The notes under the pieces were generated by a model. That model was not told where the DNA came from. It saw only the letters and a list, made by a program, of their open reading frames with translations, and made no database searches. A stretch of 64,000 bases of DNA from a virus (Duplodnaviria; Caudoviricetes): positions 32,001 to 96,000 of the IMG/VR virus record IMGVR_UViG_3300024058_000001; one strand, written 5' to 3'. Position numbers and translations under genes: made by a program. Below, in pieces: positions 23,830-55,512 of the stretch (the first letter of the stretch is position 1; every line of letters starts with the position of its first letter).

Positions 23830-24600
23830 TTAAACCTTCTCATCTGTTTCAGGTTGTTGATATTCTTCTTCTTCTTTTTTTTCTTCTTTTTTTGGTTCTT
23901 TAGGATCGTTTTTTCTAATTTCATCTTTCCTTGTAAGCATAGTTTTTTTAGTCTCCCTAATTTTTTGTTCTAATGCAACTCTATCTCCGCCAGTAGTTTT
24001 TAATCTTTCATTAGATAACATTTCTTGTTCTTCTGCATATTTACTGGATATAGCTGACGATTTAATAGCATTTCCATCATATTGATAATTGCAACAATTA
24101 TTCCAATCAACATCATCTGTAATAATTTTGCAAGTACTTGGTTGTTGAAATCTTATACAACGTATGCATCCAAAACCTTCATCTCTCTCATCGTATCCAG
24201 CTTCTTCTTTTAATAATCTAAAAGGATTTGTTTGACTAGGTTTTGCATTTGGCCCCGTCATACGTAATTGACAAGTACCTTCTGGTTCTATATGTCCTAG
24301 AACATTAGTGCATTCGCCTGTTTCTGGAATGTACATACTACAAGTTACACATTGATATTTTCCTTCTATATCATCTGTAACTAAGACAACCATTTTGCCA
24401 TCGCCTAACATAATATTTCTTTTTTCAATTGCTTTTTCAAACTCTTCTTTTAAAATAGATACTGATTCATTCTTAACAAACAAATGGACAAATCTTCTAC
24501 CACCATCTGTTACTGTTGTACCTTTTCTAATTGTGTTTAATTGTTCTTCCGTAACATCAATACGATAACCTTTAATTATAACTGAATATATTTTGCTCAT
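23830..24600 (-). CDS. Protein with shared N-terminal domain and two HiPIP-like Cys4 repeats
   Basis: CVTCSMY...CTNVLGHIEPEGTC and AGY...CIRCIRFQQPSTCKIITDDVDWNNCC; N-terminus homologous to 45814..48114. Confidence 0.55.
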   Translation of the reverse strand: MSKIYSVIIKGYRIDVTEEQLNTIRKGTTVTDGGRRFVHLFVKNESVSILKEEFEKAIEKRNIMLGDGKMVVLVTDDIEGKYQCVTCSMYIPETGECTNVLGHIEPEGTCQLRMTGPNAKPSQTNPFRLLKEEAGYDERDEGFGCIRCIRFQQPSTCKIITDDVDWNNCCNYQYDGNAIKSSAISSKYAEEQEMLSNERLKTTGGDRVALEQKIRETKKTMLTRKDEIRKNDPKEPKKEEKKEEEEYQQPETDEKV

Positions 24601-32822: not shown

Positions 32823-33833
32823 TTAGGCTCCGACGTTTATGATTTTTCCCTGGAACGCCTCTGCGGTCAACTGCAGAACGGTAAACTCAGCAACTAAAGT
32901 ACGATAAGCGGATTGAAGTAAAGCAAGATCAATCGAAGATAGTGGCATTAAATCCACCATCTGGATTGCATTACCATCTTCAAGAACTGTCTTGTCATCA
33001 ATAACAAGAATAAAAGCATTACCCGCATCGGGAGTGATGTATCTTGAACCGATTACATCAACAACACCGAAAGGAGACAGCCAACGAGTAACCGAAATTC
33101 CCGCAGGAATATCAGCCATCGTGCCTGCACCAGCCTGGAAGAGTCTGTAAAAAGAACCCAACACAAGCTCGTTAAACTTCTGTAAGTCACGATAAGACAT
33201 GACTACAGCTTGAGGCTTACCACCCACCGTTACAATATTTTGTTCGACTGTAGTAATGTCGGACAGAGCTAAAGGAGAACCAGTATTATCAAGCACGTTA
33301 TCCGTGATTTGCTTTGCTAATCCATCGAATTGAAGACCAGTACCAGTGGAAGAATCTCCATTGATAATAGCCCATTCCTCCATGAGAGCAACGTTAAGCA
33401 TCTTTACTTTTACTTGATGTTTCTTAATGTCAGTGTAAGTTCCACCAGCCATTTGCTCGAAGAACGAAACATTAACGGTATCACCAAGAGAAGTATACGG
33501 AGCCGACCTAAACTTATAGTTAGGCTGACTTGCTTGAGGTAGTCCACCCTTTTCAAAAAATCCCTGTTCTGGAGCAGTACCACCCAAAAACAAATGTCCA
33601 GCAGAATCGGCTCCCGTTGAAACTGTGGGAGTCAATTGATACCAAGCATGGGCTTTTCCATTACCAGCGATTCGATTAAAACGATTACGTAAGGGAGTAT
33701 CAGTAGGAGCCATAATTGCCATTTCAGCCTGCAAGTCTTCACGGACTAGCAAAAGACCGCTAACATCTGTGGAAGAAATTGCTTTCTGAATGTCATTAAT
33801 AGCTTGCTCTACTATTTGCGCGTTATAATTCAT
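32823..33833 (-). CDS. Major capsid protein (HK97 fold)
   Basis: After the protease-scaffold; DTPLRNRF, EEWAIINGDS...FDGLAKQI; strong RBS; 336 aa. Confidence 0.9.
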   Translation of the reverse strand: MNYNAQIVEQAINDIQKAISSTDVSGLLLVREDLQAEMAIMAPTDTPLRNRFNRIAGNGKAHAWYQLTPTVSTGADSAGHLFLGGTAPEQGFFEKGGLPQASQPNYKFRSAPYTSLGDTVNVSFFEQMAGGTYTDIKKHQVKVKMLNVALMEEWAIINGDSSTGTGLQFDGLAKQITDNVLDNTGSPLALSDITTVEQNIVTVGGKPQAVVMSYRDLQKFNELVLGSFYRLFQAGAGTMADIPAGISVTRWLSPFGVVDVIGSRYITPDAGNAFILVIDDKTVLEDGNAIQMVDLMPLSSIDLALLQSAYRTLVAEFTVLQLTAEAFQGKIINVGA

Positions 33834-33889: not shown

Positions 33890-35821
33890 TTAAAGGGCTT
33901 TACCGAACTTAGCATCAAGCATCTTATTGACAACATTGTCTTTAAAACGCTCTTGATCGGGGGTCAACTTTGTTCCTTCTACACGCCATTTGGTTACAGT
34001 ATCAATATCTTTCTGTAGAGTATTATCTACTTTACCATCAGCATCTAGACTTTTTTCAATCTTGAACTTTCTCGGCTTAGGTTGACGCATTTGCTGTTCT
34101 ATCCCATCGAATCGCTTTCTCAGCGAATCCACTGCATCTACTACTTTTGATAGATCGTTCTGTGATCCATCGGCTTTCCTACTTCTTCCTGCTAAATAAC
34201 CTGCACCAGCAGCAGCGCCAACTTGGGCGCGACGACTACGAACTGCACGACCTGCAATATGCGTCATAGCTGCACGTGAACGTGCTACGTCTTTTACTCT
34301 AGATGCACCAGTTTTTACTTTCCCTGCCACACTTCTCGCTTGGCCTGGAACTTTACTAGCTGCACTACGAACTGCACCAACTGCGCGTTGTCCTACTGTG
34401 CGTCCTGCACTAATTGCGCGTTGTCCTAATTTACGACCTGCTCTAAGAGCTGCCATTGCAGCACTGCCTAAAGCTTTTTCTGTTGCTTCATCATCATCTT
34501 CATAATTCTTTTCTGTATCCTCATCGCCTTCTGGTTCCGTATCTTCATACGGATATGCACCTTCAGGATCTTGAGTTTGAGCATCTACAGTAGCGGGATG
34601 TTTACCAGGATATTTATCACCTTCGGAATCATGGCCATCTTTTTCGACCTCTTCTTCCGTTTCATCGTGATCTTCCTTTTCAAATTCTCCCTCTACTTCT
34701 ACATAATCAGCCTTTTCTGGATCGTCATCACCATATGGATAGTTGCCTTCGGCGTGTTGATTTTGTGGATCAACATCCGCAGCAGCTCCTGAATCTAAGG
34801 GATCAGTCTCCCCCAGGTCTGGATCTGATGTCGAACCTTTAGGCGTTCCTTTTGAACCCTCAATGGGTTTATAAGCACCTTCATATGCTTTGTCGATAAT
34901 ATCGGCAAGATTTGTGACAACCTCTACCAATGCATCGACTTTCTTATTCAATTCATCTATTTTCACGTTATTCCCTCCTCGGTAAACGTCTTTTACATGC
35001 GATTCAAATGCAGAACCTAATACTTCTTGAGCTTTGTCAAGTACTGCATCTGTTTCTTCAGTTACTAAATTATACTTCTCCATAGTTTCTAATGCCCGAA
35101 CTGCATGAACTTTATCTGGCATTGGAATTAATCTTTCCTTTGTTACTACTGAATCTTTAACAGACTTTCTAATAACACCAAAGTCGTCATCACTCAGTTT
35201 TTCTAATTGTTCTGTGTTTAATACTTTTCTAACCAACGAATCTGCTTTTTCTCTATGTTCCTTAACTTCTGTAAAAAGTGGATCGGTAGCTTCTGTTATA
35301 ACAACTTTCTTGATATCCTCAACAATTTCTGTTTGATAAGGTATACCATTAATGCTTTTTATTAAAGAAAAAGAACATCCAGGATTTGCAGGATTATCTA
35401 CTAGAGATAATTCATTAAGCTTATACTTGGTAATTCTACTAATATTTCTTGAACTACCAGTATCTAAGTCTTTAATTACTTCTTGTACCTTATTTACTGT
35501 TTGTCCACCAATAGAAAAACCATTCAAAATCCCTTCTTTAATCTTTTCCCATGTGTCACCTGCACCCTTCGATATATAGGCTTCTATCCAAATTTTCTTA
35601 GTATCATCATTTGGAGTAATTTCTATAGCCTTGCCTACCGCTTTGGCTTCGTGCATCTCACGGATATTTCCTTGCCATTTACTAAATGCTTCCTTGCTAC
35701 CATTATAGTCAACTATCTCGTTTTGTTTATCAATTTCCTCAGTAGTTGCCCAACCAGCGACTGTACGCTTTTCTGTATCTATTTTCTCAATAGGTACGTA
35801 CAAATTAAACTTAGTGCTCAT
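33890..35821 (-). CDS. Prohead protease (HK97/XkdF type) fused to scaffold, with a cationic insert
   Basis: NIREMH..KAVGK, GFSIGG, ELSLVDNPANP; acidic middle; coiled-coil C-terminus. Confidence 0.9.
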   Translation of the reverse strand: MSTKFNLYVPIEKIDTEKRTVAGWATTEEIDKQNEIVDYNGSKEAFSKWQGNIREMHEAKAVGKAIEITPNDDTKKIWIEAYISKGAGDTWEKIKEGILNGFSIGGQTVNKVQEVIKDLDTGSSRNISRITKYKLNELSLVDNPANPGCSFSLIKSINGIPYQTEIVEDIKKVVITEATDPLFTEVKEHREKADSLVRKVLNTEQLEKLSDDDFGVIRKSVKDSVVTKERLIPMPDKVHAVRALETMEKYNLVTEETDAVLDKAQEVLGSAFESHVKDVYRGGNNVKIDELNKKVDALVEVVTNLADIIDKAYEGAYKPIEGSKGTPKGSTSDPDLGETDPLDSGAAADVDPQNQHAEGNYPYGDDDPEKADYVEVEGEFEKEDHDETEEEVEKDGHDSEGDKYPGKHPATVDAQTQDPEGAYPYEDTEPEGDEDTEKNYEDDDEATEKALGSAAMAALRAGRKLGQRAISAGRTVGQRAVGAVRSAASKVPGQARSVAGKVKTGASRVKDVARSRAAMTHIAGRAVRSRRAQVGAAAGAGYLAGRSRKADGSQNDLSKVVDAVDSLRKRFDGIEQQMRQPKPRKFKIEKSLDADGKVDNTLQKDIDTVTKWRVEGTKLTPDQERFKDNVVNKMLDAKFGKAL

Positions 35822-40933: not shown

Positions 40934-41468
40934 TATAAGCCTCTTTTAGCGATTTATGCTTAGTCTGAAGTTGAAATAAATTTGTCGTAATTTGCGCCAT
41001 TGCTTCATTATTATGCGCGTTTCTCATATGATTATAAAAAAAATGAACTAATTCGTGAAATAACACCCATTCGTCCCCATTATAAATAATGATATCTTTA
41101 CCTATTAATTTATCTAAATTTACTCCTGCATGATATCTACCGTTATAAAATTTTCCGATAGCCGTAGGTGGATCATCTAAGGTCTCGGCTAAATAAATTC
41201 TAACCTTACTATTTACTTTATCAGCCGAAAAGAATTTCTTAAGAACTCCGTACATCTGTTCTGCCGTTTCTGCATCTGCTGCATACGAAATAATATGGTC
41301 TGTTTCTTGAGTAACTTTTGTACTAACTAGATTATAATCTTTAAGTTCTATTCTAAATCTTTTACCTGGATTAATATACAATAATATAGAATAGCAAAAT
41401 AATATAACTAAAATAACTCTAATTACTATTTTTCTTAACTTAACCACTATCGTCCTCATCAAATCCAA
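40875..41468 (-). CDS. Membrane-anchored HEXXH zinc metallopeptidase-like protein
   Basis: N-terminal TM helix; VLFHELVH...NEAMA. Confidence 0.65.
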   Translation of the reverse strand: MDLMRTIVVKLRKIVIRVILVILFCYSILLYINPGKRFRIELKDYNLVSTKVTQETDHIISYAADAETAEQMYGVLKKFFSADKVNSKVRIYLAETLDDPPTAIGKFYNGRYHAGVNLDKLIGKDIIIYNGDEWVLFHELVHFFYNHMRNAHNNEAMAQITTNLFQLQTKHKSLKEAYNEIDTKYRAGIISEIYETN

Positions 41469-43230
41469 TTCTTAAATCTGCGTCTATTCCTTGTTTTCTT
41501 AATTCTTTTACAGTTTTATCTACTAATTTATTTTGTTCTTTATATTTCTTTTTTCTATTAACCGAAACTTTTATAGTATTAGTACCATCTGAAATAGAGG
41601 GAGGTACCGCATTTTCCATTGTAGGACGACCTGCATCGCCATCAACTTGTTGTTCAGGTTCAGGCCCTGGTTGCAATCCAAAAGGATCGGTTCTCTCATT
41701 TTGTTGAAATCCTCGATTAGGCATACCGCCTAATTCATCAAGTTTATCAATATCTTTAACTGGAACCATACCAACACCAGTTTTAATCATTTGTTCATCT
41801 CCGCCCTCAATGGGCTTCTTACCAAGTTTCTTTCTTCTTTCATTAATTGAAATAACACCAGAATCCATGTCAAGTCTGTCAACCTGCGATTGCTGGATAT
41901 CGTCTTTTAGCTCTGCACTTTGCCATTCAAATTTTACATCCTGAAAACCAAACTCTGCCTTTACAATCTCTTCATTAAAAAAAGAAGCTAACAAATTTAA
42001 AAGTGTTTTAACTCCTCTTGCTTGTGATAGCTTTGCTTGAACTTCAGCGGTAGTACGGTGAAAGTCTAAGACAAACCCTATGTCCTGTGGGCTTATTCCG
42101 TATACCGCGCATTTAATGGCAACTGTCCATTTTAAATATTCCATCATTTGCATGTCTCTATTAGACTGCACACGCATAGGAATAAAATCTAATTTGTCAG
42201 ATCCTGATGTAATTAATAGTTTATGAAGACCACCTCGACCTTGTACTTCTTGTTCCCATAAATTTTGAAACATCTGTCGTTGGTCTTCAGATACATTTTC
42301 TCCAAGATTTAGCACACCAGGAGGAACATTAGAATTTTTAAAATAATCAATATTATATTCATCTGCATATAAACTTGCAGTAATAATATACGCAGCTACT
42401 TCTAATGGAGAAACACCATAGCCAGTTTGTTGAGGATTTTGAGATATATATAGTAATTCGTCATTTGTAAATTCTGCACGAATTACTCCTTTATCTTCCC
42501 ATACATATGCAGGTTCTGGTGCTTTAGGTATCGTTCTATCTTCATTTCTATAAATCTTTACTTCTTGTCCTGGTAATGGATAAATCTCCGCCAAATTTCC
42601 AAGATAATCATAATTTTTTACAATAACACCAGAATCGTAAATTAAAATATCATCTAAAACTAACTCTAATAATGTTCTAAATGTTGTTTCTGTTTGATTT
42701 GGATGCTCTAAAATACACTTAACTTTGTATTTATGTTCTTCTGCATTCTGTTTAACTCGTTTTGCCCACGCCTTAAAAAACCATCTAACGGCTTCTCTTT
42801 TTGCTTTTTCATCTATAGCCTTTTCAATAATTGGAGGAAGACTACTTCGTATTTCATCTTGTATTTCTTCTGGTAAAATTTGAGATTTAAACGGAGGAAG
42901 ATCATATCCATAAGGATTAAGAGAAGTTAAAATAGATTCTTCCCACCTATCCAATTCAGCCTCTAAATTATCGGTATCAGGGACTATATCCCATTTAGTC
43001 TGACTAATAAATCCTTTTATTACTCTGCGAATAGCCCAAGTAACTGGATCAGTATTCGCTAATCGCCCTAATGTTGCAGCACTCAGAGTAAATTGTCGCT
43101 GAACTTTTTTACCAGTGGTATTATTAAGAAATCTAAACATACCTTTGCGAGGTACGGGTTCACCACGACCTGGATCAAGCTTTAGTGCTTTACTAAAGGT
43201 ATTCTGAATTTTCTTAATTAAGTTTGCCAC
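41440..43230 (-). CDS. Portal protein
   Basis: GYGVSPLE, YFKNSNVPPGVL, CAVYGISPQDIG, SINERRKKLGKKPIEGGD. Confidence 0.93.
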   Translation of the reverse strand: MANLIKKIQNTFSKALKLDPGRGEPVPRKGMFRFLNNTTGKKVQRQFTLSAATLGRLANTDPVTWAIRRVIKGFISQTKWDIVPDTDNLEAELDRWEESILTSLNPYGYDLPPFKSQILPEEIQDEIRSSLPPIIEKAIDEKAKREAVRWFFKAWAKRVKQNAEEHKYKVKCILEHPNQTETTFRTLLELVLDDILIYDSGVIVKNYDYLGNLAEIYPLPGQEVKIYRNEDRTIPKAPEPAYVWEDKGVIRAEFTNDELLYISQNPQQTGYGVSPLEVAAYIITASLYADEYNIDYFKNSNVPPGVLNLGENVSEDQRQMFQNLWEQEVQGRGGLHKLLITSGSDKLDFIPMRVQSNRDMQMMEYLKWTVAIKCAVYGISPQDIGFVLDFHRTTAEVQAKLSQARGVKTLLNLLASFFNEEIVKAEFGFQDVKFEWQSAELKDDIQQSQVDRLDMDSGVISINERRKKLGKKPIEGGDEQMIKTGVGMVPVKDIDKLDELGGMPNRGFQQNERTDPFGLQPGPEPEQQVDGDAGRPTMENAVPPSISDGTNTIKVSVNRKKKYKEQNKLVDKTVKELRKQGIDADLRIGFDEDDSG

Positions 43231-43897: not shown

Positions 43898-44179
43898 TTA
43901 TATAATTCGTTCAGGCAACCAGGCTGAATATGCAGGTCTAACTCTTGGTGTATCTGATGCAATTTCGTTATCAGGTTGAGTAACCCTATTAGTCATCTGA
44001 TTTTGTTGGTGCTTTTGGCCGTGAACGATGTCCTCATTTTTCTTTTTTGGTCGTTTAATTCCTAAATCTTCTCTAACAAGTAAAAGTCCAGGAACATCTA
44101 TAGAAGTTATTTCTTTTCTAATAGTTTGAAGTTTTCCTAAATAATCTCTAAGTTGTTCTATGAATTCCAATTTGTTCAT
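43898..44179 (-). CDS. Small protein carrying a copy of the capsid protein N-arm
   Basis: IRKEITSIDVPGLLLVREDL vs capsid IQKAISSTDVSGLLLVREDL. Confidence 0.7.
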   Translation of the reverse strand: MNKLEFIEQLRDYLGKLQTIRKEITSIDVPGLLLVREDLGIKRPKKKNEDIVHGQKHQQNQMTNRVTQPDNEIASDTPRVRPAYSAWLPERII

Positions 44180-44846: not shown

Positions 44847-45803
44847 CTATTTAAAATAATCAAAACTAAAACGTCTACGTCCTTCTCTTGGGCGTATTTG
44901 ACGGCCATTAACTAAATAATTTCTATATGTTGCTGTATTAAGAACTTGATAAGTATTTGCTACTCTGCTAGAAACAATTTTTCCCTCATCAAATGCCCCT
45001 AACTTAGAATCAAAATAATAAACTAAATCGCCTGGTTTAAATCGACGAAATATTCTAAACTGTTTATCTATAGCATTATCTCTCTTACTTGTCTTTGAAC
45101 GTCTTTTACCAGCAGCATAGCCTGCTGCAGGCAATGCACTTATACCTGCTATACGCGCTGTTTTACCTGCAATTCTTCTTTTACCTGCACGTGTACCCAT
45201 ACTTTGTCTAAATGTTTCTGCTTTATACCTTTGTTTACGTCCTATATTACGTACCTTAACTCCTACTGAACCTAATTTACGTCCTATTGTAGAGACTGCA
45301 CTAGCTATTCCTTTTTTTGTATTTACATTTGCAGTTGTTTCAATTCCTCTTTCATCTGACATTACAACAGGAACCTTTTCATAGCCAAGTTCTTTAAGAG
45401 CTACAAATCTATGATGACCATCTGTTACCATTTTACCAGGTTTTCCATCATGGTCAATTTCGGTATAAACTAATGGTTTAATATCTCCACTAATTTTAAT
45501 AGCGTGTTTTATTTTGTCTACCTTGTTTCGGTCTAATGTTCTATTATATGGATTTGGAAGCAACTCAGAAATGTTAATTTCTTCTATTTTTATCTTTACC
45601 ATTCTTCCCCATTGACTATTTCCGCGATGCTCACTTCTAGGGCCAATGGCAGAAGATCCTTCACTCGAAGGATTAAAATTAAAACCTTCTGCTTCAGGCG
45701 GATTAGTGCTAATAGCAGGAAATCTATATTCCCGTGTTTCAGCCTTATTTATCTGCCTAGTTAAATCTCTTAGTTGAGTCCATGTTTTCATATTTGTTAT
45801 CAT
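44847..45803 (-). CDS. Multi-module protein: QLRD leader + ParB/Srx-like domain + cationic cassette + SH3/Tudor-like domain
   Basis: LLPNPYNR...IKPL...VTDGHHRFVALKELGYEKVPV; TKK-GIASAVSTIGRKL; FKPGDLVYY. Confidence 0.7.
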   Translation of the reverse strand: MITNMKTWTQLRDLTRQINKAETREYRFPAISTNPPEAEGFNFNPSSEGSSAIGPRSEHRGNSQWGRMVKIKIEEINISELLPNPYNRTLDRNKVDKIKHAIKISGDIKPLVYTEIDHDGKPGKMVTDGHHRFVALKELGYEKVPVVMSDERGIETTANVNTKKGIASAVSTIGRKLGSVGVKVRNIGRKQRYKAETFRQSMGTRAGKRRIAGKTARIAGISALPAAGYAAGKRRSKTSKRDNAIDKQFRIFRRFKPGDLVYYFDSKLGAFDEGKIVSSRVANTYQVLNTATYRNYLVNGRQIRPREGRRRFSFDYFK

Positions 45804-45813
45804 CTTGTAATCT

Positions 45814-48114
45814 TTAAATTATTCGTGTTTTAGTTCTAGCAGCAAGATTTCTAACCCTTCCCAAATCTCGATATGTTTTGGATCTTGTAGCTGCCTGTGC
45901 TCTGCCAATTTGTTTAATTCTTCCTAATTGTTGAACCTGCTGTCCCATCATTTGCCCAATTTGTTTTCTTTCTCTAACTATTCTATTGTATTGTGCATTA
46001 AGTGAAGGCTTCTTTATTTTTTGTCCTATTGAACGTATTTTACGTCCTACTGCACGTGCTGCACTGCCTATACCTTTTTCTGTATCTTCTGTAATACCAT
46101 TCCAACCGCATCGTTTTCTTAAATTCTTTAATTCCTTTTTAATATTTTGTAATTCCATTACCTTTTTTCTTTTCTTACGTCCGTATGCTGACTTCATCCT
46201 ATATCCCATCATTCTAGCTCCTGCAGTTCCTACCTTTATACCCAAATTTCTTCTACGAGCACCTTTTGGCAATTTTCCTGCTGCGATACGAGACAAAGCT
46301 CCACCAGGACGTTTTAGTTCCGCTTTAGCACCAGCGTCAAGACCTATATTTATTAATTTATTACCTACACGTCTAACAACAGATCCCACTTTAGATCGTA
46401 AACCTTTTTCTGTATCACCATTTTTCAAATTATCTAGTTTCTTTTTAACATCTGTAATAGATACTACCTTATAACTTTTCTTAGGTTTACCAAACGCGCC
46501 TAAACTATGTGCAAGATAACTACCTTCTGCAACAGGAAGGGCCACTCTTGCTACTCGTCCCACACGTGTTCTTCCAAATTTAGCTCCTGCACGTTGGGCT
46601 GATAATCCTGCTCTACTTCTTACTCCGCGTGTTCCTTTCCATCCTGCTTTTGTTCCTGAAATTAACTTAGGAGCTAACTTTCTGCCTATTGCTAACGCTC
46701 CACGTCCTGCAGCTACCAAAGCAGCTCCATATTTTTCTACATCCTCTGTATCATCCATATCTTTTTCTATATCTGCCATTTGGTCAACTTTATCAAAAAG
46801 CTCCATAATATCATTTAGTTCTTCAGGAACTAAATACTTTATCAGTTCCTGTTGTTCTACTGGAGATGCAAATTCCAACATGTCAATGATCTCAGCAATA
46901 CTAAAATCTTTAGATAAATCCTTTGTTTGTGCACTTTTTTCTCTAAATACTCTGCCTAACAATCCTGATCCAGGTGTGTGAGCAACTGTTGTTACAGGTT
47001 TTGATGCACCAATGGCATCTCTTATTTTGCCAGTTCTAAAATCTTTAATTCCTCCACCTAAAGTTTGAGTTGTATATACTCTGTTTACTGGAATTTTTCC
47101 TACGTAAGTCTTTATTTTACCTCCAAGTTGCCTTAGCCTCTTTATACCAGCACGTCTAGTCGCTGGATGTGCTAACGCAGCAATAGCACCAAGACCTGCA
47201 GCAGCACCCGCAATACGGCCAGCTTTACCACGTTTAGAACCTTGCTCTGCTTTATTAATAATTTCCATATGACCTTTAGGATCGTCACACCATATTTTTT
47301 GTAATGAACCATCTGAACTTACCTTAGTAACAGAAACACCTTTCATTGCAGGTAAACCAAATGTTGGCTCAACTGGTTGTCCTGGTTGTCTTAATGGCCC
47401 AGGCACTTGCGCTTCTTCTGGTTCTACAGGTGCTTCAGGTACTTCAGGAACACCACCAGGTTCAACACTAGTATCTACTTGTCCTTTACAATGTGGACAA
47501 ACTACTTGTAAGGGTTTTGCTTCTTCTGGAGTTTCCGCAGATTCCTCAACATCTTCTTGAGGTTCCTCTTCTGGAAGTTCTTCTTCTCCTTCAGATCCAC
47601 CAAATTCTCCTGTTTCTAAATCTTCAGGAACTTCCTCTGCAGATTCGTCTTGAGGCTCTTCAATTACTTCCCCATTTTCATCAACAACATCTTCTTCTTT
47701 TTCTTCCTCTTCGGGCAAACGCTCTTGTGGGTCATTAGCGTTAGTTGTAGCTATTTGTTCACCAGGTTGTTCAGCTTGTCCTTGCATTTCTTGATCTGTC
47801 TGAGGATTTATATTATCTTCTACAGGTTTATCTAATACCTGTTCAGCCGTAGATTCTACCACTTCTTTTTCTTTAGGTGGTAACGCATTTTCTAATTCTT
47901 CTAACTCTTCTGGAGACATATTAGCCAATATGCCCTTTTTAATTTCATTATCAAACTCTTGTTTGCCAACATCGATTCTACCCTTGCTCGTAAATACATG
48001 AACGATTTTCTTTTGGGTTTCAGTTGTAACTTCACCCTTTTTAATAGCGTCCAAGTCAGCTTGGGTAAAGTCAAATCGTTGACCCTTTACCACGATTGTA
48101 TACACTTTACTCAT
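45814..48114 (-). CDS. Putative internal head polyprotein (acidic region + four cationic cassettes)
   Basis: Glu/Pro-rich N-half; cassettes after IINK, DVEK, DTEK, DTEK. Confidence 0.7.
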   Translation of the reverse strand: MSKVYTIVVKGQRFDFTQADLDAIKKGEVTTETQKKIVHVFTSKGRIDVGKQEFDNEIKKGILANMSPEELEELENALPPKEKEVVESTAEQVLDKPVEDNINPQTDQEMQGQAEQPGEQIATTNANDPQERLPEEEEKEEDVVDENGEVIEEPQDESAEEVPEDLETGEFGGSEGEEELPEEEPQEDVEESAETPEEAKPLQVVCPHCKGQVDTSVEPGGVPEVPEAPVEPEEAQVPGPLRQPGQPVEPTFGLPAMKGVSVTKVSSDGSLQKIWCDDPKGHMEIINKAEQGSKRGKAGRIAGAAAGLGAIAALAHPATRRAGIKRLRQLGGKIKTYVGKIPVNRVYTTQTLGGGIKDFRTGKIRDAIGASKPVTTVAHTPGSGLLGRVFREKSAQTKDLSKDFSIAEIIDMLEFASPVEQQELIKYLVPEELNDIMELFDKVDQMADIEKDMDDTEDVEKYGAALVAAGRGALAIGRKLAPKLISGTKAGWKGTRGVRSRAGLSAQRAGAKFGRTRVGRVARVALPVAEGSYLAHSLGAFGKPKKSYKVVSITDVKKKLDNLKNGDTEKGLRSKVGSVVRRVGNKLINIGLDAGAKAELKRPGGALSRIAAGKLPKGARRRNLGIKVGTAGARMMGYRMKSAYGRKKRKKVMELQNIKKELKNLRKRCGWNGITEDTEKGIGSAARAVGRKIRSIGQKIKKPSLNAQYNRIVRERKQIGQMMGQQVQQLGRIKQIGRAQAATRSKTYRDLGRVRNLAARTKTRII

Positions 48115-48250
48115 TTTAGTTCTCCTTTAGATTTTTCTTCAATTTTTGGACAAATTCGATGTTGCCAACCAATTGTTTGACCATCTTTTATTATTGGTAA
48201 AATATTTTCATCATTAATATCAAAAGTGTCTTTACACTTCAGACATACAA

Positions 48251-48454
48251 TCATTTTTTAATTCGCCTCTTAGCCAGCATATGCCCATGCAATCTGTTTG
48301 ATATATCATTGCTTATAGGAATTATTTCATAGCCTTTATCTTCTAATTCAAAAATTAATTCAGCAGTGAAACATTGGAATTCATCACCGTTAACTATATC
48401 TCTAAAAAGCTTAACTATTTTAGCTTTTTCGTTAATTTCCAGACGTATTTTCAT
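48251..48454 (-). CDS. Hypothetical protein
   Basis: 67-aa ORF in operon. Confidence 0.45.
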   Translation of the reverse strand: MKIRLEINEKAKIVKLFRDIVNGDEFQCFTAELIFELEDKGYEIIPISNDISNRLHGHMLAKRRIKK

Positions 48455-48818
48455 TTTTCTTAATTACTCTTTTCTTATTTGTATAAGGATTAACTAAACC
48501 TTTTTCTATCATTATATCATTAACAGATTTTTTGCTGTTATCTAAATATAAAAATGCAATATAACGGTCATGATATTTTCCTGGCTTCAAAGATTTCAAC
48601 ATGATTTCTTTATTTAGTATTGTTTCTTCTAAATATTTTTTTGCAGCTAAAGCCTTTTCTAAATTCTTTTTATCTTTTAATTCGTATGAATCAATACCTG
48701 CAAATCGAATTTTAATAGTACGAACAATCCTAAATCCTAAATCTACGGCTACTACAACTGTATCTCCATCAACAATTCTAGTGACCATCGCGTTATATTT
48801 AAACATTTTTTCCTCCAT
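48432..48818 (-). CDS. Thermonuclease (SNase-like)
   Basis: RIVDGDTV..VDLGF...IRFAGIDSYE...GKYHDRYIA...VNDIMIEKGL. Confidence 0.88.
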   Translation of the reverse strand: MEEKMFKYNAMVTRIVDGDTVVVAVDLGFRIVRTIKIRFAGIDSYELKDKKNLEKALAAKKYLEETILNKEIMLKSLKPGKYHDRYIAFLYLDNSKKSVNDIMIEKGLVNPYTNKKRVIKKNENTSGN

Positions 48819-50121
48819 TAGCTAGTTTTACAGCAGCAGGAATATCTATAATTCCTCTTCCTTGTTCACGATCAGCATATCCTATACCTTTAGCTGTTGC
48901 CCTTAAAAACATTTTTACCTTTTCGCCTCTATTCCTAGACTTCGGTAATTTTGCAGCTTCTATTAATAAGGCAGCAGCACCTGCAACATGAGGAGTTGCC
49001 ATAGAAGTTCCAGACATTTTTTGAAACATTGTATTATTACTGTCCACAACAGTACATTTATCTACTTTTTGATCTGCTGTTTTAACAGATGTAATACCAT
49101 CTCCATAAGGACATCCATGTTCCGCTTTAATACCACCACCAGGAGCTACAACATCAGGCTTACTTAAATTTCGGTTCCTATCTATAACAGGGCCACGTGA
49201 ACTATACGTTGGTATCCTGTTTATTTGATCAACCGAACCTACTGTTATAACTTTTTCTGCCACACCTGGAGATGATATTGTGTCGGGTCTTGGCCCTTCA
49301 TTACCTGCAGCAACAACTACAACAATTCCTTCTTCTGCTAATCTGTTGGCTTCCCGTGACATGGCATCATTTGCATGACCACCGCCACCAAGACTCATGG
49401 AAATAACATCTGCGCCCTGACTAGCTGCCCAAGACATACCTCTAATTATTCTATCTGTTGTATTGCGTCCTGATGCAGCAAGAACTTTTGCATCAATTAA
49501 CGCAACTTTTGGAGCTACACCTTTATAGGTAGAATCATTACTTGCGACTATACCCGCGCAATGCGTACCATGCCCAACTTCGTCTAATTTCCTTGGATAT
49601 AATTTGTTTTTAATTTGATTAAATAATGGAAAATAACTTTTACCTGTAAAATCTTGCCTTGCTACTACTTTTCCTTTTAAACTTGGATGATTATCATTTA
49701 TACCAGTATCTATGATAGCTACTTTTACGCCTTCACCTTCGTATCCAGCACCATGAAGATTAAAAGCACCGCATTGATTCACAGCTTTGTTCATCATAGT
49801 GTGTACTTCGACTACTTGTTCTATTTCTACATTTAAAGAATTGCTAATTCGTAGAATTTGTTTTTCTGATAAATAAGTAGGGAATTCAACAACTATGGCA
49901 TTAATACGTTTATGAACTTGAAGTATCTTCCCGCCTAATTCTTTTAATTGTTTAAAATCGAAACCAATCTTTTTAAGATATCGATAAACAAGAAATAATA
50001 GAACAAACCCCAATATAGGATGATCTGCAAAAACAGTTTTTGCTATTTTACCTACTTTTAGATAAAAAAAATATCTATTTGTAAGTAACTTTTTATCGAG
50101 GGGTTGTTGATATAAACTCAT
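48799..50121 (-). CDS. Subtilisin-like S8 serine protease with N-terminal TM and propeptide
   Basis: AIIDTGI, GHGTHCAGIVA, AAGNEG, SGTSMATPHVAGAAALL. Confidence 0.95.
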   Translation of the reverse strand: MSLYQQPLDKKLLTNRYFFYLKVGKIAKTVFADHPILGFVLLFLVYRYLKKIGFDFKQLKELGGKILQVHKRINAIVVEFPTYLSEKQILRISNSLNVEIEQVVEVHTMMNKAVNQCGAFNLHGAGYEGEGVKVAIIDTGINDNHPSLKGKVVARQDFTGKSYFPLFNQIKNKLYPRKLDEVGHGTHCAGIVASNDSTYKGVAPKVALIDAKVLAASGRNTTDRIIRGMSWAASQGADVISMSLGGGGHANDAMSREANRLAEEGIVVVVAAGNEGPRPDTISSPGVAEKVITVGSVDQINRIPTYSSRGPVIDRNRNLSKPDVVAPGGGIKAEHGCPYGDGITSVKTADQKVDKCTVVDSNNTMFQKMSGTSMATPHVAGAAALLIEAAKLPKSRNRGEKVKMFLRATAKGIGYADREQGRGIIDIPAAVKLANGGKNV

Positions 50122-50197: not shown

Positions 50198-50971
50198 TTA
50201 TATTTTTTTTAAACGTTCAACAGAAGCTTTTAGAGACTTGATACTTTTCTTTTTAACAGGAGGAGAAACGTATTCATCCTCTGTTTTTTTTGCTTTTCCA
50301 GCTTTTTCTACTGGTCTAAGCACTTGCAAATTTGAAACTAGTTCGTGATTAAACGTGCCATTTGCCCATTTAACCATAGCAGCTTGATTACCATCCACAG
50401 CAGAATACACTTTCAATACCTGACCAACTAGTTTATTTCCACTGCGTAAAATCTTAATGACTACATCATGTACGCGAATAGAATCACTATAGTTATGTTG
50501 ACCTTGTATCTGATCAGAAAGTCGATCTTCTTCATAATAAGGTTTGTATGCCTTATTATCTGTATCAGCATATTCTTCTTTAAGATAATCACCCTTAATG
50601 GTTCCAGAATTATCTTCCGTAGGAACCTTTTCTTCTTTATTATCGGTTGTATGACGATTATCTTTGCGTGTAGGATCACCAGTACCTTGACTTTTATCAC
50701 CCGTTGCTACCACACGTTCTGGTACATCAGACATTCTGCTATATCCACCACGAAACTGATCATTTTTAAAAGCGGGTGTATTCTTAAGATCAACCCCTTT
50801 TCTAATTTCTTCAGCCGTAGTGGCTTCAAACTTCATTCCACCATATTTCATTTCAGCAAGCTTATCATACATTTCATCAACGAAAGTTTCTTCTACTTTA
50901 GTCAAAGGAATGCACTTACTACGTTTTTCAAGTATCGTATCTAACTTCTGTTTTAGCTCTTTATTGTCCAT
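50198..50971 (-). CDS. Putative internal head protein with SH3-like domain
   Basis: ILEK/IRK/VEK sites; VGQVLKV...AMVKWANGTF; C-terminal amphipathic helix. Confidence 0.5.
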   Translation of the reverse strand: MDNKELKQKLDTILEKRSKCIPLTKVEETFVDEMYDKLAEMKYGGMKFEATTAEEIRKGVDLKNTPAFKNDQFRGGYSRMSDVPERVVATGDKSQGTGDPTRKDNRHTTDNKEEKVPTEDNSGTIKGDYLKEEYADTDNKAYKPYYEEDRLSDQIQGQHNYSDSIRVHDVVIKILRSGNKLVGQVLKVYSAVDGNQAAMVKWANGTFNHELVSNLQVLRPVEKAGKAKKTEDEYVSPPVKKKSIKSLKASVERLKKI

Positions 50972-51182
50972 TTTCTATATCCTCATTCTTATTTGTACTA
51001 GCGTTTTCTCTAGTACTTTCATCCAATTTTACTATATCACGATATAAATCCCAAGTGTAGTCGCATATTGCGTCTACTTGTTCGGGTGTAATATTTTTAG
51101 TATGAATCCTTGAAGTTGCTTCGCAAACATCACGCCATTGTTCTGGAGCTTTTTCTGGTAAATTATTAAGATCAATTCTCAT
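50961..51182 (-). CDS. Hypothetical protein
   Basis: 73-aa coupled ORF. Confidence 0.55.
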   Translation of the reverse strand: MRIDLNNLPEKAPEQWRDVCEATSRIHTKNITPEQVDAICDYTWDLYRDIVKLDESTRENASTNKNEDIENGQ

Positions 51183-53038
51183 TATTTGCGCCTCAAACTT
51201 CTAAGAGTTTTAATACCTTTAAGTTTTCGTCCCATTTTAAACAATGCTATGGAAATAGGACGTTCAATTGGTTTTAAAAATTTTAATTTTGGTAATTTAG
51301 TAATTCCTCTTAATACTCTAGACGCACTAAATAAACCAACACCTAAAATTTCATTAGGTTTAATACCCAATGCTGCTAAAGTAAAAGCACTTCCTATTAC
51401 TCCTATAGCAGCATCAGAACCAAGATCGCCAAATATGCCTACTGTAGAACTAACAACTTTTGCAGTATTTCCTGCCGTACCTCTTACTATTCCTTTACCA
51501 ATATTAGTCAACTTTCTTTCGGCTCTATTAACAGAATTATTAGCCTGTGCATTAACCGATGCATCTGATAATCTAGATATGCGTTGTTCACGCCGTTGGC
51601 TTTGTCTCTGCTGTCGTCGTGTAGCAGGTTCAGGAGCTTTAGGAATTGTATCTTGTTTTTTACCTCCGCGCCCTGCCCAACCTCGACGTGCAGCTTCTGC
51701 ATGTCTAACGGCATCTCCAATCCAACCTTTTTCTACAGTTAATTTATCTAGTTTATCATAAATAATCTCAAAACTTTTTTTATGTTTAAAATATTGAATT
51801 TGACGTTCTCTGTTTTCTGCTGCACCTCTAGTAGCAAATTTTTCTTTGCGTCCATCAGAGAAATGTAATGCATATCCACTATCTTCTCTACGTATTACTT
51901 TGTCTACTCTAAGAAGTTGTTGTTCAGAATCGGATGCTTTTCTGGAAGGGTCAATAGAAGACAAAAGATGTTGTGCTTCTTCTAAGATAGGAGTAACTAA
52001 TTCGTCTGTATCTCTCTCCGTAATGATTCCCTGAATCTGACCTCTTGTTTGTAATTCTTCTAAATTATGAATAAGTTCTACTAATTCTTGTACTACTTGT
52101 CCAAGCCGTATTTTTTCTGTAGAAGCTTCGTTGCCAGGAAGTCCATCAGGAGGATTACTGTGCATATTGGGATAATCTGTAAGATTTTGACCACTATACT
52201 CTTTCCTTACTTTTTCTTTACCTTTTTCTCTAGGATTTACTGCAGACGCTGCTGCATCTTTTTTAGTTTCTTGTTCCTGATCTCCCTTGACTGACGGAAT
52301 AACATCTAAAATATTATTTAATTCTTTCTTTTCTTTGTCATTCAATGAATCAGATAATTTTTTCTTTTCTTTTTCAGATAGTTGGCCCAATTCTCTTAAA
52401 ACATTTGCAACATAATTGCCATCATCTTCAGGAGTACTAATTTGTTTCAAAAATTTTTGTGGGGGTTCTGGCTGTCTACCCTTAGGTTTAGCCCGCCTTA
52501 ACCTAGAAAGTAATATACCACTAGCAGCAATTCCAACCGCCCATTTCATTCGTGGGCTTTTAACAGCATGTACGACTCGCTGACCAGCACGACCAACACT
52601 TTCTGCAGCCTTAATTCCTCTTTGAACAACTTTCGCGCCTGCTTTTACACCTCTAATTCCCGCTGCAACTGTACGAATAACAGGCTTTGCAATTTGTATA
52701 GCTGTCGCTGCACCTAATGATAAAAGCGCAGTTCGACCTACCCAAGCTGTTCCTCGCGCTCCTCTTGCAGCTTCTGCATGTCTAGCATTATCTCCAAACC
52801 AACCACGTTCTTTTTGTACTTTTAATGATTTACTTTGACTTAAAGAATATTGAATACTTGTATTTGCAACATTACGAGTGCCTCTAGGTTTTTTGTTAGA
52901 ACTTGTCACTTGTTTGTTTTCTCTTGTATCCACAAGAATCTTATTAATTTCATCTCGCGTTACAATCTTCACGCTCTTAGTATACTTTTTACTAAGTGCG
53001 ATATCTAATTGTTTATTTCTTTCATCATCAATAAGCAT
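51182..53038 (-). CDS. Putative internal head polyprotein with two GWxGDxxRHAEAAR cationic cassettes
   Basis: VQK-ERGWFGDNARHAEAARG and VEK-GWIGDAVRHAEAARRGW; RERQIQYFKH mini-domain. Confidence 0.65.
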   Translation of the reverse strand: MLIDDERNKQLDIALSKKYTKSVKIVTRDEINKILVDTRENKQVTSSNKKPRGTRNVANTSIQYSLSQSKSLKVQKERGWFGDNARHAEAARGARGTAWVGRTALLSLGAATAIQIAKPVIRTVAAGIRGVKAGAKVVQRGIKAAESVGRAGQRVVHAVKSPRMKWAVGIAASGILLSRLRRAKPKGRQPEPPQKFLKQISTPEDDGNYVANVLRELGQLSEKEKKKLSDSLNDKEKKELNNILDVIPSVKGDQEQETKKDAAASAVNPREKGKEKVRKEYSGQNLTDYPNMHSNPPDGLPGNEASTEKIRLGQVVQELVELIHNLEELQTRGQIQGIITERDTDELVTPILEEAQHLLSSIDPSRKASDSEQQLLRVDKVIRREDSGYALHFSDGRKEKFATRGAAENRERQIQYFKHKKSFEIIYDKLDKLTVEKGWIGDAVRHAEAARRGWAGRGGKKQDTIPKAPEPATRRQQRQSQRREQRISRLSDASVNAQANNSVNRAERKLTNIGKGIVRGTAGNTAKVVSSTVGIFGDLGSDAAIGVIGSAFTLAALGIKPNEILGVGLFSASRVLRGITKLPKLKFLKPIERPISIALFKMGRKLKGIKTLRSLRRK

Positions 53039-53637: not shown

Positions 53638-55512
53638 TTAAGGTCGTTCGCCGTAACGTACTAGTTTATCTCTATCTTTTTCAGAAGGGCCAGTACCAAA
53701 ATTGCCTGTTCCTTTGAATGAAGCAAATCCAACACTAAATGTATTTTTGGAATGTTCTATACATAGTTTGGTACATCCCGCTGCTGCATCTGATACATCC
53801 TTAGAACCTTCTTTTCGACCTTCCATCATTGACCGTCTATATGATAAATCTGGATGATCTACTTTTCCATTGGACTTTCTGATTAATTCTTCACATTCCC
53901 TAATGAATATGGGGTGTTTATAGATATCAAAAAGTCCTTTGTATATCTGTTCTTTTAACGTATCATAAGCTTGGGTATTTCTATCTACAGACAATATTTC
54001 AGCGTTAATTCCCGCTTTCTTTAATATCTGTATACTATCAAGGCTTTGCCAGCCGTCAAAAGTAACCATCTTGATATTGAACCCGATGTGACTAAGACTT
54101 TGTAGAAATTCTCGAATTTCATCAAAAATAATTTCTTGTCCTGGTCTGGCTTTAATTTGTAGAATTAAATCTATAATGACAGAAGTCTGTTTCTGTCCTG
54201 TTAACCCTGATATTTGAAATCCTTCTGCTTTTGCTAAATCCTGAATATAAGATTCACTAAGTTTTACATTTTGATTGCGTAAAGCATGACCTAACGCAAG
54301 GCCACAATAATCTCCAGATTCTTTACCCTTTGCCAAATCAACATGAACAAAATATTGCTGTCCTCTTAAAGGACGAAAAAAATCTTTAAATCTTAAACCT
54401 AAAATATCATCAGTCGAAATATGATCCCCAATTACGGGATTCACTCTATTTGCATTGATGGATTCGGTAATTCTTGATTTATATTTGAAATAACCGCCTT
54501 CAGCAGTAGTGCCTTCACACTCATAAATTCTTTGAGCATCTTCAGGATTCCGTATGTAATCATCTAAAAAATCTTCTTTTGTACGTTTAGGATTCCATTC
54601 CCATGTAGCTGCTTTAACCCTATATGTTTTTTCTTCGTTCTCTGATTCAGCATATCGTATCATCATAAAATCATTGTCGTCTCTTTTGTATGAAAACATC
54701 AACGTTTTACGTTTACCGCCAAATCTTGTTTTTTGAGTTGTTGTTAAAGCCTGATGAAGCTCAGACGCTTTTTTCGGTTCAAATCCGCCCACTTCGTCAT
54801 AGGCCACTAATAAAAGATTTAATCCCTCACCTGTATACTCAACACTATCTAAGGAATACGCGGTGATGCCCTTTGGAAATATAATTTCTCTTTTCTGAAT
54901 ATCGTTCTTTAAACTAACTCCATGCTTTTCAAACCAATTATCCTTTGTGCCAGGAATTGTACAACATTTTACCATACTGGCAAAATTCTTAAAAAACACA
55001 TCTTTGGCCAATCTAGCATTAAGAGAAACATTTCCTATGTCTATCGCGGATTCGGGGCCTGTAAGATCCGTATCGTTTAGCCCCAAAAATTTCTGAGGGT
55101 TCTTCATGCAAAGAAGCCAGTAACAACAATAGGTAAAAATCTTAGCAATTGTTCGATCCTTGCCTCCGCCCTTACCAATCAATGCAATTCCTTCACTATA
55201 TTTCTCACTCCACTTAGTCGGGTCAGTTCCTAGCATTTTATCTACAAAATCTTGTTGTGCTGGATAACAAGCTTCATTCAAAAATGTTTCAAAGAACTCT
55301 CTAGAGCTAACAGGAAATTCTTCCCATATTAAATCTTTATTAGCTACTGAACCAATTCCTCCATGCGATCTACAAAATCCTGTTCCTGCATGGTCTGTAC
55401 GCCATCCAGCCGATCTTTTGCAATATTTGCCATTTTCAAGCTTGCCATTGCATCGACTTTCTACAGGGCCTGATACATTAGATTTTTGTGGAATATCCTT
55501 GTTTTCAGTCAT
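53638..55512 (-). CDS. terL: Terminase large subunit with N-terminal Cys/His (HGG-type) domain
   Basis: Walker A GKGGGKD, Walker B VAYDEVGG, nuclease HVDLAKG...SKDVSDA. Confidence 0.92.
   Translation of the reverse strand: MTENKDIPQKSNVSGPVESRCNGKLENGKYCKRSAGWRTDHAGTGFCRSHGGIGSVANKDLIWEEFPVSSREFFETFLNEACYPAQQDFVDKMLGTDPTKWSEKYSEGIALIGKGGGKDRTIAKIFTYCCYWLLCMKNPQKFLGLNDTDLTGPESAIDIGNVSLNARLAKDVFFKNFASMVKCCTIPGTKDNWFEKHGVSLKNDIQKREIIFPKGITAYSLDSVEYTGEGLNLLLVAYDEVGGFEPKKASELHQALTTTQKTRFGGKRKTLMFSYKRDDNDFMMIRYAESENEEKTYRVKAATWEWNPKRTKEDFLDDYIRNPEDAQRIYECEGTTAEGGYFKYKSRITESINANRVNPVIGDHISTDDILGLRFKDFFRPLRGQQYFVHVDLAKGKESGDYCGLALGHALRNQNVKLSESYIQDLAKAEGFQISGLTGQKQTSVIIDLILQIKARPGQEIIFDEIREFLQSLSHIGFNIKMVTFDGWQSLDSIQILKKAGINAEILSVDRNTQAYDTLKEQIYKGLFDIYKHPIFIRECEELIRKSNGKVDHPDLSYRRSMMEGRKEGSKDVSDAAAGCTKLCIEHSKNTFSVGFASFKGTGNFGTGPSEKDRDKLVRYGERP

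Follow-up and report, generated by a model that had tools for sequence, protein, structure and literature searches.

To our knowledge, detailed work on internal head proteins is limited to T4 and the giant phiKZ-like phages. In T4, approximately 1000 molecules of internal protein are packed along with the DNA, the lysines of these proteins contacting its phosphates (PMC3012670). In HK97, the prohead protease cuts at K103/S104 (PMC10275583). Polyvalent proteins, such as DdrB/DarB of phage P1, are encoded near portal and terminase genes together with ParB_N, nuclease and zincin-like peptidase, and their packaging into the head and proteolytic processing have been proposed (Iyer et al. 2017, PMC5512222). 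Here, we analyze a window of 64,000 nucleotides (nt), bases 32001-96000 of the single-contig virus record IMGVR_UViG_3300024058_000001 (104,771 base pairs, rated complete), in which the gene P0001 encodes a protein of 766 amino acids (aa) with strongly segregated charge. The phage is tailed and uncultured, and the neighbors of the gene place it within the block of head-morphogenesis genes, in the interval between terminase and portal. Our preferred reading, to which we give a probability of about 0.5, is that P0001 would serve as cargo inside the head, a polyprotein from which the prohead protease cuts out polycations that associate with DNA.

The open reading frame (ORF) of P0001 is real and is preceded by a strong ribosome-binding site (AAAGGAGA, 7 nt ahead of the ATG). 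A small N-terminal domain and a long acidic, proline-rich linker are followed by four basic cassettes of 82-103 residues, with at most three acidic residues and a net charge of +17 to +22 each, separated by spacers (Table 1). The whole protein has a net charge of +17, and its sequence charge decoration is -45 compared with 0.3 +/- 1.4 in shuffles. A sequence-only reading of this ORF had described the acidic proline-rich front and the four basic cassettes, and the charge map confirms both, the cassettes falling in the same four coordinate ranges. The spacers were also taken to be acidic or helical; acidity is limited to spacer 1 (-15), spacers 2 and 3 being of mixed charge (+2 each). An AlphaFold2 model of the full protein, built on a three-sequence alignment, reached a mean predicted local distance difference test score (pLDDT) of 47, with the linker as coil and the cassettes as low-confidence helices; only residues ~640-766 (spacer 3 and cassette 4) were modeled confidently, as long helices with pLDDT 70-90. 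One fold running across the boundaries, which would sit badly with separate units, was looked for and not found, no folded domain bridging any cassette/spacer boundary in this model. Taken as helices, the starts of cassettes 3 and 4 come out strongly amphipathic, with hydrophobic moments of 0.63 and 0.78. P0001 has no signal peptide, its N-terminus being hydrophilic, no PHROG or Pfam family matched it, no enzymatic or effector domain could be recognized, and a PDB sequence search gave only chance matches to the acidic tract.

Within P0001, the most conserved element is the C-P-H-C island, which is kept in all four homologues and differs by a single residue in the 191-aa form discussed below. 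Sequence comparison indicates that the protein is a composite: residues 1-253 represent a conserved, acidic protein of the head cluster, residues 254-461 a module of the family of a 618-aa head-cluster protein, and residues 462-766 three cassettes like those of the scaffold and ParB proteins in the same phage. Residues 233-285 align to the 618-aa family with E 1e-6. In that family, the motif G-W-F-G-D...H-A-x-A-A, usually after E-K or K/R, precedes each basic/hydrophobic block; moreover, the homologue P0005 has one cassette and a spacer, and this part shares 41% identity (E 5e-45) with a module found in the family member P0018. The sequence-only description is corrected here in that cassette 1 differs in type, belonging to a module of the 618-aa family.

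Homology between spacers 2 and 3 is clear (Smith-Waterman score 63 compared with 22.7 +/- 4.5, z = 9, 0/500 shuffles), as the repeated DTEK motif had suggested, and their DNA retains blocks that are 77-82% identical at a spacing of 306-330 nt; a unit of spacer plus cassette was therefore duplicated in tandem. The recurrence of DNA at both D-T-E-K/G junctions was likewise borne out: a 14-mer occurs there in exactly two copies in the 64-kilobase (kb) window (46073 and 46403; 0 expected), and a third copy (83%) encodes D-I-E-K near the end of spacer 1. Over their full length, the cassettes show no significant likeness in Smith-Waterman comparisons against shuffles (z from -0.8 to 2.1), and phmmer found nothing. 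The idea of four copies of one repeat was dropped on these grounds and replaced by a shared start motif and a shared composition, so that the proposed cassette duplication stands for the cassette-plus-spacer unit, with likeness between the cassettes themselves confined to the first 20 residues. Those 20 residues after the junction lysine are alike between genes in exact register, the best ungapped pair of 20-mers lying at offset 0,0. Cassette 4 matches the ParB cassette with z = 6.7 (10 of 20 residues identical) and the scaffold cassette with z = 5.1, cassette 3 matches the ParB cassette with z = 4.2, and the sum of pairs gives z = 5.7 (0/5000 shuffles). The DNA of the shared starts is still alignable, with a mean column identity of 73%.

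Cassettes of this kind are confined to four head genes of the phage. When a cassette was defined as a 70-aa window with a net charge of at least +14, no more than four acidic residues and at least 20% Gly+Ala, seven windows were found, four in P0001 and one each in the Peptidase_S78 protease-scaffold, the ParB_N protein and the 618-aa protein, with none in the other ~190 ORFs. One copy lies inside the scaffold, which is necessarily a protein of the procapsid interior, and the most economical reading is therefore that the cassettes are located inside the procapsid. Portals 47-64% identical to that of the window are encoded in twelve IMG/VR loci. Compared with relatives, the cassettes look like add-on modules. 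The six protease-scaffold homologues all align on both sides of the scaffold cassette of the window phage and are without it. The P0001 version of locus L003 has 191 aa and no cassettes: its N-domain is shortened, the acidic linker and the C-P-H-C island are present, and a stop codon comes next; the gene after it encodes a 108-aa protein (L003:910-1236) that corresponds to the window ParB protein minus ParB_N and cassette. The window protein is thus the 108-aa protein with a ParB_N domain and a cationic cassette placed between its N- and C-terminal parts. At 60% identity, P0004 is the closest P0001 homologue; it stops after 276 residues, directly past the second conserved motif, and is probably cassette-free. 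Conversely, P0016, which shares 76% identity with the 618-aa protein, carries one additional cassette, placed exactly after V-D-K and ending V-T-K. In three loci (L005, L006 and L013) the SNase gene is directly followed by a 110-aa gene; both the P0001 gene and a separate ParB gene are missing, and ParB_N is found inside a protein of 965 or 1503 aa after the terminase. These 965-1503-aa ParB_N proteins have modules in common with the 618-aa protein. Neither of the complete relatives G001 and G002 (93.9 and 96.2 kb) has a P0001 homologue or, by the rule above, a cassette window. Because the 191-aa homologue is equally acidic without cassettes, the acidic half predates them and has its own role.

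Further searches for P0001 returned little. A tblastn search against 50,697 phage records gave no match, a word-indexed search of 5.8 billion proteins returned P0001 itself only, and a full HMMER search of 1.84 billion representatives yielded seven relatives, none of them named and none spanning cassettes 2-4. An alignment-based scan of IMG/VR returned L003 only, and a scan of JGI metagenomes returned nothing. This lack of homologues of cassettes 2-4, together with close relatives that do without cassettes and an overall sequence that is not conserved between them, would be expected if the C-terminal half were a tolerated low-complexity expansion that has no specific role and is never cleaved. 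We consider this very unlikely, as 473 codons have stayed open in a genome of 35% GC, the composition class is restricted to four head genes, junctions and starts are conserved in register, and charge is compensated in the scaffold.

The charge compensation concerns the variable linker of the protease-scaffold, whose net charge is -17 in the window phage despite the +20 cassette, compared with -9 to -16 in six relatives. Net charge is kept because a hyper-acidic tract lies just upstream of the cassette (minimum 60-residue charge -22, compared with -8 to -13 in relatives), and compensation in this protein is supported by the comparison. It is not general, since the ParB-like and 618-aa proteins have cassettes without an acidic partner tract. 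The suggestion that acidic portions offset the basic ones therefore applies to the protease-scaffold, and fails for the ParB-like and 618-aa proteins and for P0001 as a whole, which keeps its net +17. The same data can be read in terms of loading and assembly: cassettes could pair with the acidic tracts of scaffold and P0001 in an electrostatic, coacervate-like core and bring the ParB-like, 618-aa and 766-aa proteins into the procapsid as cargo, with the pieces perhaps degraded or expelled at maturation. The cassettes do occur on otherwise unrelated, cargo-like proteins, the window scaffold combines the strongest acidic tract with a cassette, P0001 is an extreme blocky polyampholyte, and T4 loads cargo by means of a short capsid-targeting sequence (PMC3012670). 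However, a tag need not have 80-100 residues or be present fourfold in one protein, and relatives load ParB-containing proteins without such cassettes. We regard loading as an unlikely full account, and only partly a rival, being compatible with the cargo-polyprotein reading as an earlier step.

Self-processing sites are expected in the scaffold linkers of protease-scaffold fusions. T-E-K before A, G or V was found seven times in the scaffold parts of six protease-scaffolds from relatives, compared with 0.6 expected (0/5000 shuffles); these scaffolds are cassette-free and independent of the definition of the motif. In the four cassette proteins, [V/T/L]-E-K-[G/A] occurs four times compared with 0.64 expected (22/5000 shuffles), a pattern that was set after viewing the data. 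Moreover, D-T-E-K and A-T-E-K recur in relatives of the 257-aa head-cluster protein, and the capsid protein has a lysine followed by Ala/Ser-Ile near residue 17 that is kept in all six phages compared. With P0001 considered as a possible S78 substrate, T-E-K stands at cassette starts of P0001 and of the scaffold and is enriched in the scaffold linkers of relatives, not proteome-wide. Based on this enrichment, on the K103/S104 cut of HK97 and on the conserved capsid lysine, E-K followed by G or A is the best candidate for the prohead protease site, and the earlier impression that the junctions resemble processing sites has gained support outside the sequences from which the motif was taken. The polyprotein reading is plausible, with the scaffold motif and the charge balance lending it independent support. 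The Peptidase_S78 domain itself scores above the Pfam threshold (22.6 compared with 21 bits).

A second protease of the locus is the S8 subtilase encoded two genes upstream of P0001, and phage families with an S8 domain occur within very large proteins (phrog_3677), so it could be thought to process P0001 in place of the prohead protease. This is highly unlikely. The subtilase is kept in L005 and L013, which have neither P0001 nor cassettes, and for this conservation in cassette-free relatives it was dropped as the dedicated processing enzyme; moreover, an N-terminal hydrophobic anchor and an apparent propeptide-type segment precede its catalytic domain, as in exported subtilases, and the junction motif is common to the scaffold of the S78 protease. 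The window subtilase may be membrane-anchored or exported.

Altogether, we infer that P0001 is packaged into the head, cleaved and bound to DNA, in the following way. It would be expressed late, together with the head proteins, and incorporated inside the procapsid alongside the protease-scaffold, perhaps targeted by its N-domain, by the C-P-H-C island or by pairing of cassettes with acidic scaffold tracts. Before cutting, acidic tracts would offset basic ones. The HK97-type S78 prohead protease would then cut after the lysine of [D/A]-[T/V]-E-K closing spacers 1, 2 and 3, releasing three polycationic, largely helical or disordered peptides of ~86-110 residues (net ~+19 to +24 each) and leaving a front piece of 461 residues (net ~-46). 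After cutting and DNA packaging, the polycations would stay with the DNA as counter-ions and the acidic fragments would be displaced; the released polycations could possibly also be co-injected as DNA-coating proteins.

Several observations weigh against this scheme. The cassettes are dispensable in relatives, and the paralogue of the N-domain, which heads a 256-aa protein (23830-24600, minus strand; 36% identity, E 3e-10), is encoded among neck and tail genes and not among head genes. Plain T-E-K is not enriched in the window proteome (13 copies seen compared with 12 expected, 3 of the 13 directly ahead of cassette starts), the junction motif was defined post hoc with the data already seen, internal repeats supply part of the enrichment in relatives, and two of the six relatives have no T-E-K. 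Cassette 2 is preceded by D-V-E-K-Y and not by T-E-K-G, with a start unlike those of other cassettes, and no clear site is found ahead of cassette 1. The likeness of the junctions could also have come simply by inheritance with duplicated cassettes. Finally, amphipathic starts and Gly/Ala hydrophobic stretches suit membrane binding as well as DNA binding.

This last point leads to the possibility that the released peptides are membrane-active: leaving the particle along with the DNA, or set free at lysis, they would insert into or permeabilize the host envelope, like the products of antimicrobial-peptide precursors. The hydrophobic moments of the starts of cassettes 3 and 4 are in the range obtained by the same calculation for magainin (0.51) and a segment of LL-37 (0.78); Gly/Ala hydrophobic stretches with G-x3-G spacing are present in cassette 1 and in the 618-aa protein, and the cassette of P0005 has a match to the glycine zipper 2TM domain (PF05433; E 0.0017), which is below the gathering threshold (18.7 bits, cut-off 24.2), with no match in P0001. 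Such activity nevertheless seems quite unlikely: P0001 lacks a signal peptide, the cassettes are long (82-103 residues) with few Leu, Phe or Trp and a mean hydrophobicity below zero, the gene lies in the head block and not in a lysis block, and a copy of the cassette is found inside the scaffold. The best 19-residue hydropathy (1.37 in P0001 and 1.58 in the 618-aa protein) led us not to adopt a transmembrane reading, the value for P0001 being under the usual transmembrane level. Antimicrobial-peptide polyprotein precursors of the amphibian magainin or insect apidaecin type are secreted by animal cells; they carry a signal peptide, and their units are 20-40 residues long and processed at dibasic sites. 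P0001 resembles them in its tandem cationic amphipathic units, its spacers and the acidic region ahead; it differs in having no signal peptide, in its longer, mutually dissimilar units and in E-K-G junctions that are not dibasic, and the comparison was rejected on signal peptide, unit length and site type. The sequence-only reading had called the peptides toxic or sticky; nothing indicates toxicity, and an antimicrobial role found no support. The role proposed moves toward head-internal, DNA-associated polycations.

Among described systems, the T4 internal proteins IPI, IPII and IPIII and Alt come closest, because they are encoded by head genes, loaded into the prohead core, trimmed by a protease and kept with the DNA, which is the logic proposed for P0001. 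The T4 protease gp21 cuts after Glu. The junction in P0001 instead ends in Lys, the protease of the window phage is of the HK97 S78 type and not of the gp21 type, a short N-terminal targeting peptide is absent, several basic units are combined in one precursor, and the cassette is also present in other head proteins including the scaffold. No sequence relation to T4 internal proteins was found using PHROG, Pfam, tblastn and the 1.84 billion representatives. By analogy, and with the chances evenly balanced, P0001 would work like T4 internal proteins while not being a member of that family. The cut made in HK97, where gp4 (Peptidase_S78) acts on the delta (scaffold) domain of the capsid protein as its substrate, fits cuts after the Lys of T-E-K before G or A; HK97, however, has no internal cargo proteins or cationic cassettes, and the window protease differs from gp4 in being fused to a long separate scaffold. 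The gene setting of P0001, with SNase, SprT-like and ParB_N neighbors, is that of polyvalent proteins, which are characterized by at least two distinct effector or enzymatic domains in a single polypeptide. P0001 has no domain match, and a term search of PMC5512222 turned up no disordered polycation repeats among the components; with no homology and no effector domains, P0001 is, by sequence comparison, not a member of the polyvalent family. The adenovirus core proteins pVII and pX/Mu condense DNA and are rich in Arg and Ala; their precursors are trimmed in the particle by the viral protease. They offer a functional analogy only; the virus is eukaryotic, and neither its capsid lineage nor its protease is related.

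A bolder and rather unlikely extension is that the cassettes are a mobile, protease-bounded polycation module, a kind of phage protamine, which spread within one lineage by inserting itself into at least four head proteins, scaffold included. Excised in the capsid, it would neutralize DNA charge and allow ~9-11% more DNA to be packed. A literature search found no description of protamine-like phage capsid proteins. Unique sequence amounts to 104.6 kb in the cassette-bearing genome (G000), compared with 93.8 and 96.2 kb in the cassette-free G001 and G002, whose capsid proteins are 74-78% identical to that of G000 and equal in length. GC differs too (0.35 compared with 0.41 and 0.45), and the link between genome length and cassettes, drawn from three genomes only, is a lead and not a result. 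If P0001 is indeed cargo, an HK97-type phage would have arrived at a T4-like internal-protein system with another building block, a disordered polycationic cassette that has protease sites at its borders. This block could be repeated in tandem or inserted in unrelated head proteins, net charge being held through adjustment of acidic tracts. Such a cassette would provide a simple, transferable tag or cargo design for capsid loading and a candidate motif for cleavage by S78 proteases of a clade with little-charted specificity. Close relatives with no cassettes, set against at least seven in this phage, would also be a natural experiment on protein counter-ions, DNA packing density and ejection.

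Table 1. Features of P0001 and of the surrounding head genes (window coordinates).
Feature	Coordinates	Strand	Residues	Net charge	Remarks
Large terminase	53638-55512	-			transcribed first in listed order
618-aa protein	51182-53038	-			no assigned function; after terminase
618-aa cassette A	52463..52756	-		+18	after G-W-F-G-D motif
618-aa cassette B	51185..51652	-		+22	C-terminal, basic/hydrophobic; after second motif G-W-I-G-D
257-aa protein	50198-50971	-			no assigned function; after 618-aa gene
Peptidase_S8 subtilase	48799-50121	-			E 1e-60
SNase-like nuclease	48432-48818	-			followed by two small ORFs, then P0001
67-aa ORF	48251-48454	-			first of the two small ORFs 5' of P0001
47-aa ORF	48111-48254	-			C-x2-C ... 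H-x2-C spacing; directly upstream of P0001
P0001	45814-48114	-			766-aa ORF, charge-segregated; head cluster
N-terminal domain	47935..48114	-	1-60	+3	~60 residues
Acidic linker	47356..47934	-	61-253	-52	Pro-rich (25 Pro), disordered
C-P-H-C island	47473..47514	-			14 residues
Second conserved motif	47356..47406	-			Pro/Gly, V-P-G-P-L ... P-T-F-G
Beta-hairpin segment	47236..47355	-	254-293	0	with degenerate G-W-F-G-D...H-A-x-A-A copy
Cassette 1	46927..47235	-	294-396	+18	Gly/Ala hydrophobic helix; 618-aa-family type
Spacer 1	46732..46926	-	397-461	-15	acidic, helical; ends D-I-E-K and D-V-E-K
Cassette 2	46474..46731	-	462-547	+17	
Spacer 2	46405..46473	-	548-570	+2	ends D-T-E-K before G
Cassette 3	46159..46404	-	571-652	+22	starts with amphipathic helix
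Spacer 3	46075..46158	-	653-680	+2	duplicate of spacer 2; ends D-T-E-K before G
Cassette 4	45817..46074	-	681-766	+20	
ParB_N protein	44847-45803	-			adjoins P0001 downstream
ParB cassette	45069..45311	-		+19	after N-T-K-K
Portal	41440-43230	-			
Peptidase_S78 protease fused to scaffold	33890-35821	-			farther downstream of portal
Peptidase_S78 domain	35327..35821	-			HK97-type prohead protease; proposed processing enzyme
Scaffold cassette	34166..34474	-		+20	after A-T-E-K; no counterpart in six homologues
Major capsid protein	32823-33833	-			farther downstream

The minus strand carries nearly all genes of the window. Five small genes lie between the ParB_N gene and the portal gene, the last of them SprT-like, and the portal shares only 25-31% identity with its counterparts in known phages. 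Upstream of P0001, the stop of the 67-aa ORF overlaps the start of the 47-aa ORF, whose stop in turn overlaps the start of P0001 (ATGA), and from these overlaps the three genes are read as a translationally coupled chain. The 47-aa ORF encodes a possible small zinc-binding protein, as suggested by its Cys/His spacing. The ends of the record have ~127 nt in common, the first 40 nt recurring 127 nt before the end in G000 and G001, and the terminal direct repeats of these two records look like an overlap from circular assembly rather than a true terminal repeat.

The N-domain is also found as stand-alone proteins of 65-93 aa. In the 256-aa protein, its paralogue is followed by a Cys-rich segment and then a Lys/Glu-rich tail. 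The AlphaFold2 model of the N-domain (pLDDT 55) was too poor to use, and ESM Atlas gave no usable match. The scaffold linkers of the window protease-scaffold and of its homologues in L009-L014 have a repeated T-Q-[D/E]-P-x-G-x-Y-P, with up to three copies per protein. A segment V-x-G-L-L-L-V-R-E-D-L is common to a 93-aa protein (43898-44179, minus strand) and to the capsid protein in its N-terminal arm, and a lysine at a similar distance ahead of it in both proteins is kept in relatives.

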